45,144 nt of DNA. It comes from Escherichia phage vB_EcoS-CHD2B1. This document shows, piece by piece, positions 2,883 to 41,904 of this stretch. The stretch lies in the sequence record MZ234026.1, one strand, 5' to 3'. Within the stretch, counting starts at the first letter, position 1. Each line of letters opens with the position of its first letter. The notes below the pieces were generated by a model that was given only the letters and a program-made list of their open reading frames with translations, was not told where the DNA came from and ran no database searches. A program made the position numbers and the translations under genes.

Positions 2883-3212
2883 TTACTTAGAAGTTTTATT
2901 ATTGCGTACCCAGGAGCGCACGGTGCTCTGATTAATTCCAGTTAACTCGGCAATCATCGCCCAGGACTTGCCCTCGTCGCGCAAACGGATAACCTGCTTT
3001 TTGTATTCTTCCATTTCTTCATTGTGTTTTTGCAGCTTGCTTGCTGCCGTACCGTTGAGTAATTCCAGCTTGGCGCGCAATTCTTTTTCGACACTGCGCA
3101 GGCGTTCGATTTCAAATAACGCCGCACCAACGGCATCGGTATAAGCCCAGGACCGGCTTGTCTCACCACTAACGGTCTTAGTTAACATTTCGATTGCGTC
3201 GTTGATATGCAT
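2883..3212 (-). CDS. Small DNA-binding protein with C-terminal helix-turn-helix (candidate transcriptional regulator)
   Basis: 109-aa ORF, coiled-coil middle, C-terminal WAMIAELTGINQSTVRSWV HTH-like segment; RBS AGGAGA 6 nt upstream of ATG. Confidence 0.55.
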   Translation of the reverse strand: MHINDAIEMLTKTVSGETSRSWAYTDAVGAALFEIERLRSVEKELRAKLELLNGTAASKLQKHNEEMEEYKKQVIRLRDEGKSWAMIAELTGINQSTVRSWVRNNKTSK

Positions 3213-3388: not shown

Positions 3389-3418
3389 TTGACACCCCAC
3401 CTGCAACCAATCTATTAT
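3389..3418 (+). promoter_or_regulatory. Strong sigma70-like early promoter TTGACA-N18-TATTAT; TGCAACCAA motif sits in the spacer
   Basis: Consensus -35 TTGACA at 3389..3394, -10 TATTAT at 3413..3418; upstream of the plus-strand operon starting at 3615. Confidence 0.55.
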
Positions 3419-3614
3419 TCACTCCGTCGACAGGATGCAGGACGCAAACTGGAGAGGGGCAACGCAGGGGCCGGATCGAAGTGTCAGGATTCCCAACCGT
3501 GATTATATAACCAGGTCCACTACCCGAAAGGGAGAACGCGTAACCTGGCACTATGTTAAGGCCACCGACGAAGTTGACTGCCGACACCTAAACTTAACCA
3601 ATCGGAGATATACC

Positions 3615-4133
3615 ATGTTTGAGCAAATCGTAAACCTGATCACACGCGGCGTAGTAGCACTGGAAACCATCGCTAAGCATTATGAAACTGCTGGCGCTGC
3701 CGTTGGTAAACAGGAAGCGAAGAAAGCCCCGGCTAAGGGCAAGGCAAAAGAAGAAGTAGTCGAAGATGACGACGCTGAAGACGAAGCACCGGCTAAGACC
3801 AAAAAAGCGCCAGCAAAGGGCATGGCTAAGAAAGAAGCCGTAGAAGAAGACGACGCGGACGACGAAGAAGAAGCCCCGGCGAAATCTAAGAAAGCACCGG
3901 CGAAAGGTAAAGGCAAGAAAGATGCCGATCCGCTGAAAGAGATGCGCGACGAAATCAAGCAGTATGCCGCTATTATTGCTGGCGGTGATGACGACGACGC
4001 AAACGACGAATTTGACGACCTGCTGGAAGAATTCGAAATTAAATCCGTTGCCAAGCTGGAAGATGACGACGTGGAAGAGTTCCACCAGGAATTAAAAGCA
4101 ATCGTCGAAACTTATTTCGAATTAGAAGATTAA
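3615..4133 (+). CDS. Highly acidic repeat protein (alternating Lys-rich KKAPAKGK and Asp/Glu-rich blocks); candidate DNA-mimic or host-takeover protein
   Basis: ATG at 3615 with GGAG RBS; in-frame upstream ATG at 3435 has no RBS; repeats EDEAPAKTKKAPAKG / EEEAPAKSKKAPAKG; first gene after the early promoter. Confidence 0.6.
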   Translation: MFEQIVNLITRGVVALETIAKHYETAGAAVGKQEAKKAPAKGKAKEEVVEDDDAEDEAPAKTKKAPAKGMAKKEAVEEDDADDEEEAPAKSKKAPAKGKGKKDADPLKEMRDEIKQYAAIIAGGDDDDANDEFDDLLEEFEIKSVAKLEDDDVEEFHQELKAIVETYFELED

Positions 4134-6413: not shown

Positions 6414-6438
6414 CCGCTTAGGCGCAACCAAGTAAATT
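6410..6438 (+). promoter_or_regulatory. Sigma70-like promoter TTGACC-N17-TAAATT with GCAACCAA motif in spacer
   Basis: -35 at 6410..6415, -10 at 6433..6438; upstream of the SSB gene. Confidence 0.45.
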
Positions 6439-6502
6439 AGCAACCAAGCCGAACGGGGTGGCTCACAATAACCCCGATACATGCGAAATGAGGAATTGAG
6501 AA

Positions 6503-9811: not shown

Positions 9812-9851
9812 GATTATGAAAGCAGAATTAAGCATAATGCGCGCTGGCGCT

Positions 9852-9880
9852 AACCGGTAGATCTGACATACCGGTAGATC
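9852..9880. repeat. Two direct copies of ACCGGTAGATCT (period 17 bp)
   Basis: aaccggtagatctgacataccggtagatct in the 100-bp gap between polymerase and VRR-NUC genes. Confidence 0.6.
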
Positions 9881-9911
9881 TACGTCTGCGTAACGTGGAG
9901 TTGCAAACCAA

Positions 9912-10190
9912 ATGACACCAGAAGGCAAGATTCAAAGTCACCTGATGCGACGGGTGAAAGAGGTTGGCGGATTCTGCCGCAAGCTGGCATGGGAGGGGCG
10001 CGCAGGTGCGCCCGACCTGATTATTATCATCAACGGCATCATAGTATTCGTCGAAGTGAAGCGCCCCGGAGGAAAACCGAAGCCGCACCAGGTGCGAGAA
10101 CATGAGCGAATGGCCCGCCGCGGTGCTGACGTTCGCGTTATTGACAACATAGCCGACTGCGATTTATTGGTTGCTGAATTGGTCGCGTAG
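9912..10190 (+). CDS. VRR-NUC domain nuclease (PD-(D/E)XK superfamily)
   Basis: 92 aa; GAPDLIII...VFVEVKRPGGKPKPHQ pattern. Confidence 0.65.
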   Translation: MTPEGKIQSHLMRRVKEVGGFCRKLAWEGRAGAPDLIIIINGIIVFVEVKRPGGKPKPHQVREHERMARRGADVRVIDNIADCDLLVAELVA

Positions 10191-10230: not shown

Positions 10231-10404
10231 ATGATTGAAGAAAAACGTTGTAGTAATTGCGGATGCATCAAGCCGCTATCCCAGTTCCACAAATACACCG
10301 GAAAGACTGCGCGCAGTCCAGACGGGCATCGGGCCGAGTGCAAATCGTGCCGCAATAAGAAAGAACGTGAACGGCAGCGCCGCTATCGCGCAGAACAAGA
10401 ATAA
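10231..10404 (+). CDS. Small zinc-ribbon protein (CxxC...CxxC), basic C-terminus
   Basis: ATG at 10231 with GAGGA RBS; CSNCGC...CKSCRNKKERERQRR. Confidence 0.45.
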   Translation: MIEEKRCSNCGCIKPLSQFHKYTGKTARSPDGHRAECKSCRNKKERERQRRYRAEQE

Positions 10405-13106: not shown

Positions 13107-13111
13107 ATTGG

Positions 13112-13140
13112 TTGCGTAATTAGATTGGTTGCATTATCTT
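13112..13140 (+). promoter_or_regulatory. Putative promoter TTGCGT-N17-TATCTT overlapping two TTGGTTGC motifs
   Basis: Motifs at 13108..13115 and 13125..13132 upstream of gene at 13187. Confidence 0.3.
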
Positions 13141-14571: not shown

Positions 14572-15038
14572 AACTACTGATTTGTGATCTGGATGGCGTT
14601 ATTAATGGTTCAAGTGATGCGCGTGCTGACCTGGTGCCCGGCATAAAAACCAAATCAACCTTTTGGGCGAAGTGGCACAAAGCACACGTACGCGAAGACC
14701 TTAACATGGATATGCTGCCGCTGCTGCGCATGTACAAAGAGCAAGGCTTCGAGATAGCGTATCTGACTAACCGGCAGCGCGAATGCTGGGACACGACCGC
14801 CAAGCAATTGGAAGTATTCCCGACGGGCCGGTTGTTCATGCGCCACATGCTGGACGACACCCCTCCGCCAGAGTTTAAGGCGTGCGCTGTGTTCAAAATG
14901 GTGTGCTATGCGGACGTGTCGGAACTGGTCATCATTGAAGACTGCCCGAAGAATATCGAAGCCATCCGTCGGGCGTGCAGCGATCTGGTCCCTAAAATTT
15001 ATTCTATAAACGTAGCAAAATTTACTTGCAACCAATAG
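14568..15038 (+). CDS. HAD-superfamily phosphatase (possible nucleotidase)
   Basis: N-terminal ICDLDGVI (DxDG motif I of HAD hydrolases). Confidence 0.55.
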   Translation: MKLLICDLDGVINGSSDARADLVPGIKTKSTFWAKWHKAHVREDLNMDMLPLLRMYKEQGFEIAYLTNRQRECWDTTAKQLEVFPTGRLFMRHMLDDTPPPEFKACAVFKMVCYADVSELVIIEDCPKNIEAIRRACSDLVPKIYSINVAKFTCNQ

Positions 15039-15055
15039 GTTGGTTGCACTATAGT
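15026..15055 (+). promoter_or_regulatory. Sigma70-like promoter TTGCAA-N18-TATAGT containing palindromic operator-like site GCAACCAA-tagg-TTGGTTGC
   Basis: Perfect inverted repeat of the recurrent motif between -35 and -10. Confidence 0.5.
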
Positions 15056-32414: not shown

Positions 32415-33509
32415 TTAAGACGCGCTGGTCGCGGTCAGCGTAACCAGTACGCCAGCCGTTTCCTTGATGTTACGGGTCGGCACGGCCTGTGCGGTCTGCG
32501 CCTTACGACGGCCTTTAGTATCGCTTTCGCCGCCAACGTCCTGGACGGTTGCCGGAGCGTTGTCTACCTGGCCCTGATCCAGTTCCCAGTTGTCCTTAGT
32601 GGTGATATCACCCAGGGCAAAAGAGCGGACGCCTTCGATCGGGGTACGAGCGGACGCCTTCAGACGGTAGCCTTTAACAGCCACGTTGAAGTCGAACTCA
32701 CCCTGCCACCAGCGCTCGATGTTCTCGTTACCGCCTTTTTCCTGCGCCAGCATATCGAGGCCGTTGGTGGTAACTGCAACCGCGCCAGGGACCAGACCCA
32801 GCATTTTGCCAGCGCCCATAGCATCGGCAGCGGCATCGGAGATAATGAAACGACGGCCCAGGCCATCACCCATTACTTGCAGATCGCCGATAGCGAATAC
32901 CTGCTCCGCAGAAGGCAGTGCCTGATAGGCAATGAAGTTAGCCCAGGTAACGCCGTCCATAAACCAGGACTTAATCAAAGACGCCTGATCGCCGAACTTA
33001 GAAGCCGCCAGCGGGAAGTCTGCCAGGGTCGGGAAGGTACGACCGCCAACGCCATCAACGCGCGCCGGTTGGGTGTATGCTGCCGCTGCGTTGCTCTCGA
33101 TCGCCGCTTTACTTGCGCCGATACCTGCTTTCAGGTAATGCAGCATAATCGCTTGAGTAGCCTGTGCCGCAATCTCAGCCGCAACGCTGTTAACGTTGGT
33201 TTCGATCTTAGCCATCATAGCCTTGGTGATTGCTACCGGACCCACTTTCGCGGAGAGGTTAACCGAGTTGGTCAGCATACGCGCCAGCACTTTAGCGGTC
33301 GCCGGAGTACCGACAGGGGCGTAGGCGTTACGGTCAGTAACGAGGTTGGCGATCAAGCCTACGGACATTTTTTCTACAACGTCCTTCAGCACTTCACCTG
33401 TACCGAGAACAACAGCGCCGTTAGCGGCAGCGTTGAACACGTTCAGGTTGTCGGGGATCATTTGCGTAACCGCGGTAACGAGTTTACGCTGGAACACTGT
33501 TAAAGACAT
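32415..33509 (-). CDS. Major capsid protein
   Basis: 364 aa; Ala/Gly/Val-rich; AAGGA RBS; preceded by scaffold gene and followed by terminator. Confidence 0.7.
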   Translation of the reverse strand: MSLTVFQRKLVTAVTQMIPDNLNVFNAAANGAVVLGTGEVLKDVVEKMSVGLIANLVTDRNAYAPVGTPATAKVLARMLTNSVNLSAKVGPVAITKAMMAKIETNVNSVAAEIAAQATQAIMLHYLKAGIGASKAAIESNAAAAYTQPARVDGVGGRTFPTLADFPLAASKFGDQASLIKSWFMDGVTWANFIAYQALPSAEQVFAIGDLQVMGDGLGRRFIISDAAADAMGAGKMLGLVPGAVAVTTNGLDMLAQEKGGNENIERWWQGEFDFNVAVKGYRLKASARTPIEGVRSFALGDITTKDNWELDQGQVDNAPATVQDVGGESDTKGRRKAQTAQAVPTRNIKETAGVLVTLTATSAS

Positions 33510-33606: not shown

Positions 33607-34311
33607 TTACTCGTCGTCGCCCATCTTAGCGATGATATCCCCTGCCTGTTTCGTCAGGTCGGTGATACCGAAGCTATGGCCCATCGTGATTTTAGACTTC
33701 GCATCTTCGATAACCTGTGTCGGTTTGCTCGGTGCGCCACCGGCTGGCGTGCCAGCCAGGACGGATGCAAAATCGGCGTTATTACGGAACTCTTTTTCAA
33801 GCTCGTCCATAGTCAGAGCGGACGGTTTGCCATCCTGCAAGACGCGCACTTTCAAGCTGCCGTCTTCGCCGTCTTCCAGCGCGAGGCGCTCCATTACGTG
33901 GCGTTGCATGATGCCAGCATTCTTACCGAACAGCTTCGAGGCCAGGTCTTTGGCAGCGCTGCCGATTGTAAGGTCATGGATCTGTTTGCGATAGGATTCG
34001 ATTTTCCCCGATGTGTCTGCTTCGTGTTTTGCAAACTTATCCTTCCAGGACTTATCGATCGCTTCGAGGTCGCCATTTTTGCGCGCGGCGGCTTCCTCTT
34101 TCTCTTTCGCAAGGCGCTCGGCTTCGGCGCGGCGTTCAGCTTCTGCTTTCTTCTCGCTCACCAGCTTTGCGTTGTTGTCTTTCAGACCCTTGATTTCCGC
34201 CTGTACTTCGTCAGCGGACATAAATGTTGATTTATACCCGTCGCCATCGGCAACAAAGAGCGCCTTCATACTTTCCGGCAACGCGTCATATTCTGCTTTA
34301 GTAAGTTTCAT
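33607..34311 (-). CDS. Scaffolding protein
   Basis: 234 aa from ATG 34311 (GGGGGA RBS); charged coiled-coil KKAEAERRAEAERLAKEKEE; directly upstream of capsid gene. Confidence 0.6.
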   Translation of the reverse strand: MKLTKAEYDALPESMKALFVADGDGYKSTFMSADEVQAEIKGLKDNNAKLVSEKKAEAERRAEAERLAKEKEEAAARKNGDLEAIDKSWKDKFAKHEADTSGKIESYRKQIHDLTIGSAAKDLASKLFGKNAGIMQRHVMERLALEDGEDGSLKVRVLQDGKPSALTMDELEKEFRNNADFASVLAGTPAGGAPSKPTQVIEDAKSKITMGHSFGITDLTKQAGDIIAKMGDDE

Positions 34312-34401
34312 GCTATCCCCCTGGGATTGTGGCAGAGCGGGCCACCCGCTCGACTTCACGCCTCTAATATTATCAGCGATAAAAATAATCGCAAAATTCG
34401 C

Positions 34402-34431
34402 TTGCAATTCAGGTATTGGTTGCACTATATT
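34402..34431 (+). promoter_or_regulatory. Sigma70-like promoter TTGCAA-N18-TATATT with two TTGGTTGCAC motifs
   Basis: Motifs at 34417..34426 and 34431..34440; upstream of plus-strand gene 34461. Confidence 0.5.
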
Positions 34432-34460
34432 GGTTGCACACCAACAATGAGGACACACAA

Positions 34461-35225
34461 ATGAGACTGACAAAAGACATTAAAAACCAGATTCTGGCTA
34501 ACATTCTGCGCGACCACGAAATCGCGACTGAAGCCAAAAAAATCATGATGGACTCTCGCGACCTGGCGTATGACATTACGTTGCACTGTATGCCAAAAGG
34601 CATTCACACGTTCGCCGAGCTACGCGCATATATCGCAGAAATCCGCGATAACCAGTCGCAGATGTACGGCGTCAGCGTTTACACCGATAAAGCGTCGTAC
34701 AGCTATAACAAGGACCGGACGAAAGGCATTGGACGCGTTTACTGCTCCACTTTCGAAATCAACGCAGGCGGTAACATCCGTACCCTGCATATGAGCGGCG
34801 ACGGATACCGCTACCGCCAGCACCGCGGATACTGGGAAGAGAAATATATGAATACGCTCGCGCCGGATCTCAGCGATATAGTACCGGGGTACGAGGAAGT
34901 TATGCTCGCGTCAGTGTGTGAAGTGGACGAGAACGGGGCCGCGCTGCCGATATATCTCCCGCGCGGTCGCGTAGACTACCCGGCAGATCATGATTTCTGC
35001 AAGCGCCTGGACCGCAACGACAAGGCCCGCCGTGAATTGCGTGCGAAGTATGACGCGTTCAAACTAACTGTTACCGGCGTGCTGGATATGCACAATACTG
35101 ACAAGAAGCTGATCGCGGCGTGGCCTGAAGTTGAACAGTTCATTCCATACCCGGACAAGCCGAAGTCAACGGCAGTAGCGCTGGACGTGAAGACGTTAAA
35201 CGAGATTTGCGGTATTCCGCGCTAA
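34461..35225 (+). CDS. Hypothetical 254-aa protein encoded as a plus-strand moron inside the structural module
   Basis: ATG with GAGGA RBS; own promoter and terminator; no recognisable domain by eye. Confidence 0.6.
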   Translation: MRLTKDIKNQILANILRDHEIATEAKKIMMDSRDLAYDITLHCMPKGIHTFAELRAYIAEIRDNQSQMYGVSVYTDKASYSYNKDRTKGIGRVYCSTFEINAGGNIRTLHMSGDGYRYRQHRGYWEEKYMNTLAPDLSDIVPGYEEVMLASVCEVDENGAALPIYLPRGRVDYPADHDFCKRLDRNDKARRELRAKYDAFKLTVTGVLDMHNTDKKLIAAWPEVEQFIPYPDKPKSTAVALDVKTLNEICGIPR

Positions 35226-35258
35226 CAAAAAGGGGGCCATTACGGCCCCCGAATTATT
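35226..35258. terminator. Bidirectional hairpin terminator (GGGGGCC attac GGCCCCC)
   Basis: Between convergent genes; the o-spanin stop codon lies in the loop. Confidence 0.6.
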
Positions 35259-35470
35259 TTCTGCAACTCCAGCACTTGCGCCCTCAGCTTAGCCCCGCAT
35301 TCCATATTTTTAACATCAACAAGCAAGTCCTCGTCTGGATCTGCCGAGGCATTCTCAAAGGTGCAAGGCGGTCTATAGACCGACTCGGTTAGCGGCGTCG
35401 ATGGCGCTTTGCTTGATCCGCACGCGCTCAGCATCAAAACTACAATCAGGACGGTTAGGACGCGTAACAT
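35240..35470 (-). CDS. Outer-membrane spanin (Rz1-like lipoprotein), overlapping the i-spanin gene out of frame
   Basis: 76 aa; lipobox LMLSAC; Pro-rich mature part; GAGG RBS; overlaps 35373..35470. Confidence 0.65.
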   Translation of the reverse strand: MLRVLTVLIVVLMLSACGSSKAPSTPLTESVYRPPCTFENASADPDEDLLVDVKNMECGAKLRAQVLELQKIIRGP

Positions 35471-35681
35471 ATTTTACAACCTCTTTCGTGATAGTCCGGT
35501 ATTCCACGTCGCGGGCTTGCTCAGCCTTCACCGACCCCTCAACAACCTTAGTTTGCTGCCGTTGGGCTTCGGCTTGCGCTTCTTGCGCCGCTTTCGCCAC
35601 AACGCCAGTGCGGTAGGAATCACCCTGCCAGAATCCAACCGCCAGACCGATAACCAGTCCAATCGCTGCATATTTAATCAC
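35373..35681 (-). CDS. Inner-membrane spanin (Rz-like): N-terminal TM helix plus periplasmic coiled coil
   Basis: TM segment VIKYAAIGLVIGLAVGFW; probable GTG start at 35681 (GGGGG RBS); ORF track gives TTG at 35711. Confidence 0.6.
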   Translation of the reverse strand: MIKYAAIGLVIGLAVGFWQGDSYRTGVVAKAAQEAQAEAQRQQTKVVEGSVKAEQARDVEYRTITKEVVKYVTRPNRPDCSFDAERVRIKQSAIDAANRVGL

Positions 35682-36777
35682 GCCATAACCCCCGGTTTTT
35701 AAGCTGTGCAATAGTCATTAGTTCGCCAGTATCTGTGAACATCCTCGGCACTTTCACGCCGCGCATAATCTGGTCTGCGCGCTGCACCCCATATAATTCC
35801 TCCAGAATATGGCGCGGCTGGCGCTGCACCCATGAGAAGAAATCAGTCTGCGCGTCGACCTGCTCACTCAGCAATCGACCCGCGTCAGCCTTCAGTGCCG
35901 GACGCTTACCACTGGGCCAATCTTCCATGCCTTTGACTTTCCACGTCTCCGTAGACCGGCAGCAATAATGCAGCTTGCCCGGACCAGCGCCATATTGTGA
36001 CCCAGCCACCACTTTCCCGCCGCGCTTTCCTTTGGTGTCGGGAGTAACATCAACTGGATAAAACAGGCGATCGCGTAGCTGGCACATGGGAGAAGTATGC
36101 GTATCCAATGTAGCCAACCATTGGCGACCTTCGAGAATATCGTCATTAGCTTTTACCATTAATTCGCGGGCGGTCGCCGCATAGTGGTTTACTGCGGACT
36201 TAACAACGCTTGAGATTGCCTGCGCACTACGACCGCCGAGAGCGCGCCTTACGTCCGCGATAATTTCCATAGTCGGCTTGCCCTGGATGAATCCAGCGCG
36301 CACCTGATTACCGATCTGCGTCCTGGTCCACTCCGAAAGTGAATCGGGCCATTGCATCATGGTGTTACCCTGGAATGGGTTTTTCATAGCCGTCGCTGCG
36401 ATCTGCGCGCCAGTCACTACGCCAACAACCTCAACAGCCGGTACGGCGACCGCTGGCTGGATCGCTGCCGTTAATGTATCGGCAAGATAATCAGCCTCCG
36501 TGTCGGCGAACTCCTGAAGGCTTTCAGCCAGCGCCTTAAACTCGGTGCGCAGTTCCGTTTTGACGGTCTTGTCGATTTGCGTTAACAGTGTGGTCAGTGC
36601 CTTGTTATTCATGGACTTTTTGCCATCAAGTAACTCGGTCAGCTTACCAAGTAACGTGGGCCGGAACTTCTCCCACATAGTCAGCACCCTTCGCGCCTGG
36701 TCATTGCTCAGGCGCTGGGTGAAGATGTGACGGCGAATCATACGATCCGCCATATGTTGATTAATTGTTCTCGCCAT
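35674..36777 (-). CDS. Head morphogenesis protein (Mu F / SPP1 gp7-like minor head protein)
   Basis: 367 aa; position immediately downstream of portal. Confidence 0.6.
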   Translation of the reverse strand: MARTINQHMADRMIRRHIFTQRLSNDQARRVLTMWEKFRPTLLGKLTELLDGKKSMNNKALTTLLTQIDKTVKTELRTEFKALAESLQEFADTEADYLADTLTAAIQPAVAVPAVEVVGVVTGAQIAATAMKNPFQGNTMMQWPDSLSEWTRTQIGNQVRAGFIQGKPTMEIIADVRRALGGRSAQAISSVVKSAVNHYAATARELMVKANDDILEGRQWLATLDTHTSPMCQLRDRLFYPVDVTPDTKGKRGGKVVAGSQYGAGPGKLHYCCRSTETWKVKGMEDWPSGKRPALKADAGRLLSEQVDAQTDFFSWVQRQPRHILEELYGVQRADQIMRGVKVPRMFTDTGELMTIAQLKNRGLWRD

Positions 36778-41863: not shown

Positions 41864-41895
41864 TTGGTTGCAGTATGGCCCTTATGTTGGTTGCA
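41864..41895. promoter_or_regulatory. Pair of TTGGTTGCA motifs (spacing 23 bp)
   Basis: gattggttgcagtatggcccttatgttggttgcaag between terminator 41905..41932 and the small peptide gene. Confidence 0.4.
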
Positions 41896-41904
41896 AGTCA
41901 AGCA

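Follow-up and report, generated by a model that had tools for sequence, protein, structure and literature searches.

An opposite-strand nmad5 cassette in the head gene block of a Dhillonvirus and a possible non-catalytic, partner-binding role for its product

The lone plus-strand gene within the minus-strand head gene block of Escherichia phage vB_EcoS-CHD2B1 (sequence record MZ234026.1, of which the window comprises all 45,144 nucleotides analysed) was identified as nmad5. It is almost certainly the Dhillonvirus nmad5 gene, carried in a cassette of putative promoter, gene and terminator. The best explanation overall joins this identity and this cassette to a product that acts as a non-catalytic binding protein, and a probability of roughly 0.5 was assigned to the whole. 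The original prediction had treated the gene as unknown. This was superseded, since the product is a full-length match to Pfam Nmad5 and an orthologue has already been studied. The gene is thus already known: it is represented in Pfam, GenBank holds copies that are more than 99% identical, and it has been characterised genetically in the same genus.

The coding sequence (34461..35225, plus strand) extends from an ATG at 34461 to a TAA ending at 35225 and encodes 254 residues, about 29 kDa. A Shine-Dalgarno sequence, GAGGA, was read from the sequence at 34449..34453 on the plus strand, 7 nt 5' of the ATG. In the list of open reading frames the same frame was entered with a TTG start (34416..35225, 269 residues). 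That start was ruled out, as it falls within the promoter motifs and as MRLT opens every homologue; the start was therefore placed at 34461. The gene lies between the scaffold gene (33607..34311, minus strand) and the spanin genes Rz1 (35240..35470, minus strand, overlapping the start of Rz) and Rz (35373..35711, minus strand). The head morphogenesis gene lies beyond the spanins (35674..36777, minus strand), and the major capsid gene is located at 32415..33509, also on the minus strand. All flanking genes, including those for the portal and the large terminase, are on the minus strand, which confirms that a single plus-strand gene interrupts a minus-strand head gene block.

Against Pfam PF18757 (Nmad5), for which the curated gathering score is 27 bits, the product scored 191.4 bits (E 2.6e-56), with residues 1-253 aligned to profile positions 1-206. 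When the thirds of the protein were searched separately against Pfam, Nmad5 was the sole match, and the N- and C-terminal thirds each matched alone. The product also matched phrog_1965, a family of unknown function. The earlier statement that the protein contains no recognisable motif was correct for inspection by eye only, as Pfam recognises the whole protein. The peptide segments singled out at that time correspond to residues 42-65 and 116-129.

The region 34300-35300 shares 99.7% DNA identity with Escherichia phage vB_EcoS_WFI, a Dhillonvirus, and is matched by 157 phage records. By sequence similarity, the source phage is a Dhillonvirus (an HK578-like E. coli siphophage) of the WFI branch. 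The GC content of the gene is 0.529, compared with 0.545 for the window, and its GC3 of 0.655 falls within the range of its neighbours. Among 13 Dhillonvirus copies the median pairwise dN/dS is 0.13, which shows purifying selection.

Downstream, a hairpin terminator (GGGGGCC-ATTAC-GGCCCCC, 35232..35250) separates the convergent nmad5 and Rz1 genes and is bidirectional. The hairpin has a 7-bp all-GC stem, a folding energy of -17.3 kcal/mol and a z-score of -2.97; it shares bases with the Rz1 stop codon and carries a terminator annotation in phage WFI. The T-run is better on the minus strand (TTTTTGTTAG) than on the plus strand (GAATTATTTT). The strong hairpin terminator of the original prediction was accordingly upheld, as an element shared with Rz1.

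Upstream, 149 bp of intergenic control region (34312..34460) separate the divergent scaffold (minus strand) and nmad5 (plus strand) genes, and this region was conserved at all of the Dhillonvirus loci examined, regardless of the gene behind it. A putative sigma-70-like promoter was located at 34402..34431 on the plus strand, comprising TTGCAA (34402-34407), an 18-nt spacer and TATATT (34426-34431). The first copy of the motif TTGGTTGCAC (34416..34425, plus strand) is operator-like and sits in the spacer of the promoter, directly against the -10 box. The second copy (34430-34439) together with ACCAAC occupies 34430..34445 on the plus strand, reaches into the -10 box, takes in the predicted +1, and includes an imperfect palindrome, TTGGT-N5-ACCAA. 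The promoter-like site and both motif copies that had been described earlier therefore exist, but the match to consensus (9 of 12 positions) is at chance level: bare consensus sites were no more frequent than expected, with 2 sites found in 4 kb compared with 3.0 in shuffled sequence.

The case for promoter function is made instead by motif over-representation, selective conservation and recurring architecture. Allowing at most one mismatch, 14 copies of TTGGTTGCAC were found where 3.3 were expected, and both copies at the nmad5 promoter are exact. The 8-mer TTGGTTGC occurred 19 times compared with approximately 1.4 expected. Copies of TTGGTTGCAC are mostly paired and intergenic, 60-80 nt upstream of non-structural ORFs; the ORFs behind such pairs start at 10231, 13187, 15100 and 18389 on the plus strand and at 3212 and approximately 127 on the minus strand. 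A 109-aa HTH-like protein is encoded at 2883..3212 on the minus strand and is a candidate regulator of this promoter class. The arrangement of the nmad5 promoter recurs at 15026-15055 as TTGCAA-N8-TTGGTTGCAC-TATAGT, and a second copy of the nmad5 leader, TTGGTTGCACACCAACA..TGAGGAC, occurs on the minus strand at 157->127. Across 16 Dhillonvirus loci, invariant positions made up 4/4 of the TATA, 15/16 of the second motif with CACCAAC and 7/9 of the first motif, compared with 1/8 in the stretch that separates the -35 box from the first motif, where the sequence varies freely.

From these patterns, the TTGGTTGCA repeats may be operator-like sites of a promoter class that serves non-structural (replication/early) operons. 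As the repeats are common to the nmad5 promoter and to those operons, nmad5 would be co-regulated with them and not with the head genes, and we infer early or middle expression. Transcription of the gene probably runs counter to the late head operon, from a sigma-70-type promoter of its own to the bidirectional hairpin shared with Rz1. Two other explanations of the repeats were rejected. Autoregulation by Nmad5 through its own TTGGTTGCAC sites was discarded on the grounds that HK578 and Bas14 keep both copies without nmad5 at the locus. A sigma-54 -24/-12 element was dismissed by inspection, as the GG-GC spacing in TTGGTTGCA is 4 nt and not 10-11. A literature search for the motif gave unrelated primer sequences only.

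Full-length nmad5 was present in approximately 145 of the approximately 158 Dhillonvirus-type records that matched the locus (about 90%). HK578, Bas14 and SO-1 lack it, with no other difference in their head genes, and Teewinot retains the first 54 codons only. The gene is not sporadic. Behind the conserved promoter, either nmad5 follows directly, as in the window, or it is preceded by a 109-aa, 135-aa, 53-aa or 170-aa DnaN-like gene. Where nmad5 is lacking, the slot holds other cargo: the 135-aa gene alone in HK578 and the DnaN-like gene alone in Bas14/TheodorHerzl. An empty site was not seen at any of the 16 Dhillonvirus loci examined. Judged from these alignments, the locus behaves as an accessory-gene slot with a constant promoter region and variable cargo. 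In the unrelated Vibrio siphophage P23, an Nmad5 homologue is likewise the lone opposite-strand gene between head genes, and nmad5 evidently works as a portable, self-contained unit.

With clustering at 50% identity, the profile search for Nmad5 returned 734 representatives, as a rule single-domain proteins of 190-230 residues. Conservation was assessed in two sets of diverse members, of 135 and 75 sequences, and the positions conserved family-wide were R2, L3, T4, I11, N14, G104, G113, P167, T213, L217, W221, P222, E223, P229, L246, N247, G251 and P253. The signature residues are all present in the window protein (RLT..I, G104, T213, L217, WPE 221-223, P229, LN 246-247, G251 and P253), which shares with the Pfam family an N-terminal RLT..I...I..N and C-terminal T..KL...WPE and LN...G.P. 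The C-terminal module is invariant in the form T-x3-L-x3-WPE ... P ... LN-x3-G-x-P. Conservation within the family peaks at the motif T-D-K-K-L-I-A-A-W-P-E, encoded by codons 213-223 (35097..35129, plus strand), in which T213, L217, W221, P222 and E223 are the conserved positions. Compared with the family core of approximately 200 residues, the Dhillonvirus protein is about 50 residues longer and has two insertions, at about residues 75-95 and 128-160.

AlphaFold models were obtained with a pLDDT of 74.6 for the window protein and 81.7 for a 206-aa member from a Proteus prophage. The two share a bundle of long helices and a small variable beta element, and in each a short, conserved C-terminal helix comes after a stretch of low confidence. 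The models are of moderate confidence, and the Dhillonvirus-specific insertions (about residues 63-94 and 118-128) were poorly modelled, such that a cryptic active site could be concealed. No catalytic or cofactor-binding residue pattern was found among the positions conserved family-wide in the 135 and 75 members. A search for an enzyme-like fold match found none, and BFVD gave family members only. PDB sequences (searched by single sequence and by profile), NCBIfam and PADLOC gave no match to Nmad5. On conservation and modelling together, Nmad5 is most likely not an enzyme.

This bears on a rival view, in which Nmad5 modifies DNA (nucleotides) as an enzyme in its own right or as a subunit that such an enzyme cannot do without, and in which the defence system Tmn senses the modification made. 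The name of the family, "nucleotide modification associated domain 5", is said to originate with Iyer et al. 2013 (NAR 41:7635). It can be traced to the gene context in M6-like Pseudomonas phages and Bordetella phages (Yuavirus and Vojvodinavirus), where nmad5 is part of a thymidine-hypermodification cluster, between the genes for aGPT-Pplase1 and a pyrimidine hydroxymethylase, a placement in keeping with a role in DNA modification. The label is implied by the Pfam name and is used in the literature: Yamashita et al. 2025 (Commun Biol) call Nmad5 a DNA modification enzyme (PMC11846954). At some other loci a methyltransferase shares the operon with nmad5, but at a distance (Dam at L005/L006, an N6_N4_Mtase at L008 and MT-A70 in Proteus prophages). 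At most loci there is no adjacent modification gene, and none adjoins nmad5 in this genome or in the lambdoid prophages.

The commonest neighbours were of a different kind. In a census of 37 non-redundant IMG/VR loci, built on crude ORF calls and BLAST clustering, PolA was found at 11 loci, a ResIII helicase at 10, a DUF2800 PD-(D/E)XK nuclease at 7, a 285-aa unknown family at 5, and an Enc34-type SSB and an Rv2179c-like exonuclease at 3 each; no methylase or hypermodification family was common to at least 3 of these 37 loci. Among relatives at 23-28% identity, nmad5 is located in an early operon, directly before DUF2800-SSB-PolA-SNF2 genes and a few genes after a divergent HTH-gene promoter. 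In Kapi1, PhiR12_2 and the Proteus/Providencia prophages it is in the pL operon, right after N and before cIII, kil and recombination genes. Stx-converting phages also carry an Nmad5 homologue, with no annotated feature beneath the match.

Gene contexts and residue conservation thus lean away from the "modification enzyme" label. Type I/II restriction systems also act comparatively well against Dhillonviruses, in contrast to the 7-deazaguanine phages (BASEL preprint). Moreover, a phage deleted for nmad5 was still blocked by Tmn (PMC11846954), which is hard to square with a Tmn that senses an Nmad5-made modification. An enzymatic role was therefore judged unlikely.

The genetics of Tmn were reported for two Dhillonviruses, SM_A8 and SM_S22, whose nmad5 is at the same locus as the window gene, encodes 254 residues with 82-88% protein identity and contains the same TDKKLI.AWPE with K216. 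Escape mutants of both phages carried nmad5 K216E, reported as K296E in SM_S22, and reversion of the substitution restored sensitivity to Tmn (PMC11846954). The two numberings refer to one residue. The 334-aa SM_S22 annotation is over-extended: it takes an ATG further upstream as its start and so runs across the promoter, and there is no real N-terminal extension. Residue 296 of that annotation is the K of TDKKLI.AWPE that is K216 of the 254-aa protein; in the window this conserved basic residue is encoded by AAG at 35106..35108 on the plus strand. Deletion of nmad5 was tolerated in the laboratory, and attempts to clone the gene failed, apparently through toxicity (PMC11846954). The experiments were carried out on SM_A8 and SM_S22, whereas the window phage is from the WFI branch, but orthology implies that the published phenotypes should transfer to the window gene. 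The original prediction had suggested a host-interaction, anti-defence or exclusion function. A dispensable orthologue that is genetically linked to Tmn is in keeping with this, although it is only the point mutant that evades Tmn.

These data could be read to mean that Nmad5 is itself a trigger of Tmn by direct binding, with K216E acting as a binding-competent, non-activating decoy that blocks a second, redundant trigger. Tmn, a membrane NTPase defence, binds the early replisome-associated RIIB of phage T2 via its cytosolic arms (bioRxiv 2026.03.01.708804, PMC13001434). Binding and activation are separable there by one substitution, as a single change in RIIB keeps Tmn binding and abolishes activation, and RIIB nonsense mutants escape Tmn (PMC13001434). 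Independent escape mutants of two phages altered the same conserved residue, K216 lies in a confidently modelled helix beside the invariant WPE motif, and a decoy would explain escape by missense but not by deletion. However, Nmad5 has no homology to RIIB; a relationship to the T4/T2 protein was tried and rejected (hhalign probability 0.5%; BLASTP E = 1.6). T1 is blocked by Tmn, yet no T1/Tunavirus was among the Nmad5 tblastn matches listed or in the tallies by organism, which means that other Tmn triggers must exist. A role as trigger would also explain the liability of nmad5 and not its benefit to the phage. Any contact between Nmad5 and Tmn is something that we infer, the decoy is speculative, and as a full account of the protein the trigger explanation appears improbable.

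A head assembly or virion structural protein is very improbable: in about 90% of Dhillonviruses the gene does have the scaffold gene on one side and the head-morphogenesis gene on the other, with a similar placement in Vibrio phage P23, but it runs against the head genes and comes with a promoter-like site and a terminator of its own, HK578, Bas14 and SO-1 lack it with head genes otherwise the same, deletion mutants are viable (PMC11846954), and homologues elsewhere are located in early, replication or pL operons. The original prediction had named a conserved virion structural component as the outcome that would count against it, and nothing was found to suggest such a role.

The reading of Nmad5 as a non-catalytic, partner-binding protein is preferred as to mode of action, tentatively and at somewhat less than even odds. 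Nmad5 would be expressed with the replication and early genes although placed in the head module, and would bind a partner at the replication/recombination stage, either the replication or recombination machinery of the phage, whose proteins include PolA, a DUF2800 nuclease, an Enc34-type SSB, a primase-helicase and SNF2, or a conserved host factor. A constant interface would be made up of the conserved N-terminal helices and the C-terminal T..KL...WPE / LN...G.P module, with specificity perhaps tuned by the variable beta insertions. A host-directed or accessory role is consistent with the gene being dispensable and with its reported toxicity on cloning. A bolder version can be stated, and is unlikely as a whole. 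In it, Nmad5 would be misnamed and would be a non-catalytic replication/recombination adaptor, spread across PolA-type siphoviruses and lambdoid prophages, that is engaged by Tmn-type membrane NTPase defences through the invariant T..KL...WPE helix; RIIB would be a functional analogue and not a homologue, and K216E a non-activating decoy.

The interest of these results is at the level of the Nmad5 family and is small for the window gene, whose orthologue has already been mutated and deleted. Its members from phages and prophages form hundreds of sequence clusters, and those of Stx-converting phages often go unannotated. The "DNA modification enzyme" label rests on a context that most Nmad5 loci do not share. 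If Nmad5 is a replication-stage binding protein monitored by Tmn, the odd genetics of missense and deletion would be explained, and phage engineers would have a rational handle on Tmn evasion.

Two known systems offer a comparison. T-even RIIB and Nmad5 are alike in being early or replication-stage proteins, with the timing of Nmad5 deduced from its promoter class and gene contexts, in which single substitutions abolish Tmn defence. They differ in that they have no sequence relationship, and in that RIIB nonsense mutants escape Tmn whereas an nmad5 deletion does not.

The Dhillonvirus group is treated as lytic (BASEL preprint), so prophage expression of nmad5 is not expected, unlike that of lambdoid morons. 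The term "moron", used in the original prediction, applies in part. Lambdoid morons (Juhala et al. 2000; Hendrix) are extra genes with their own promoter and terminator, situated among late genes. The nmad5 cassette resembles them as an opposite-strand, self-contained unit in an accessory slot: a single dispensable gene, with a promoter-like site and a terminator, among late structural genes and in a place where the cargo differs between relatives. It is unlike them in that none of the 16 loci has an empty site, both the slot and the promoter are old and have been conserved, the composition is native, and the gene is near-universal in its genus.

The 8-mer TTGGTTGC(A) was found in 19 copies across the whole window, against approximately 1.4 expected, and is a regulatory motif spread over the genome. 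Sites were located on the minus strand at 148-188, 560-595, 3401-3410 and 6422-6447, on the plus strand at 10167, 13108-13134, 18326, 34416-34439 and 41864-41896, and in both orientations at 15026-15049. Most copies form pairs with differing spacing, or an inverted pair, and copies overlap -35/-10-like boxes 5' of non-structural operons. They look like operators for a phage-encoded regulator. The putative product of a 109-aa ORF (2883-3212, minus strand) upstream of the primase-helicase gene has a helix-turn-helix-like C-terminal stretch, SWAMIAELTGINQSTVRSWV, and is a candidate for binding the TTGGTTGCA sites. The divergent early region also carries a 232-aa ORF (3435-4133, plus strand) encoding a low-complexity protein, in which KKAPAKG-type basic repeats are interleaved with strongly acidic runs. 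The annotated start of its homologue in the near-identical phage vB_EcoS_WFI may be internal.

A possible divergent promoter for the scaffold and capsid genes was read by eye at 34367-34394 (minus strand), comprising TTGCGA, a 16 nt spacer and the extended -10 TGaTAATAT. This site scored 8/12, under the threshold of the promoter scan. A promoter of this kind would be needed should late transcription arriving from Rz1 end at the 35232-35250 hairpin.

The nmad5 promoter was also found in relatives with other or additional genes behind it. These encode proteins of 109 aa (locus L001, 6153-6482), 135/140 aa (HK578_006; L003, 1345-1767), 170 aa (L004, 1340-1858) and 53 aa (L017, about 9825-9986). 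None of the four received a Pfam assignment; the 170-aa protein showed a weak, sub-cutoff likeness (E 1e-4) to PF02767, the DNA polymerase III beta clamp.

The 334-aa nmad5 published for Escherichia phage SM_S22 (L040, PP627283.1, 1261-2265) is an over-extended annotation. Its start was placed 240 nt upstream, and the reading frame crosses the conserved promoter and is antisense to the 5' end of the scaffold gene, the CDS of which is likewise over-extended in that record. K296 in this numbering is K216. In Escherichia phage vB_EcoD_Teewinot (H118, NC_073053.1, 5104-5253), nmad5 is reduced to its first 54 codons (72% identity), which indicates that the gene was deleted in this lineage.

Vibrio phage P23 (L043, MK097141.1, 4563-5192) has a distant homologue of Nmad5 that its record labels a coil-containing protein. 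This single plus-strand gene is flanked by minus-strand head-completion and capsid genes, so that the window's arrangement occurs here independently. Approximately 59 records of Stx-converting phages (Stx2a/Stx1a-converting; H128-H140) also contain a homologue, with 32-33% identity to Nmad5 across the C-terminal 100 residues. The matching region has no annotated feature in these records; in annotated lambdoid relatives, the Nmad5 gene lies directly after N.
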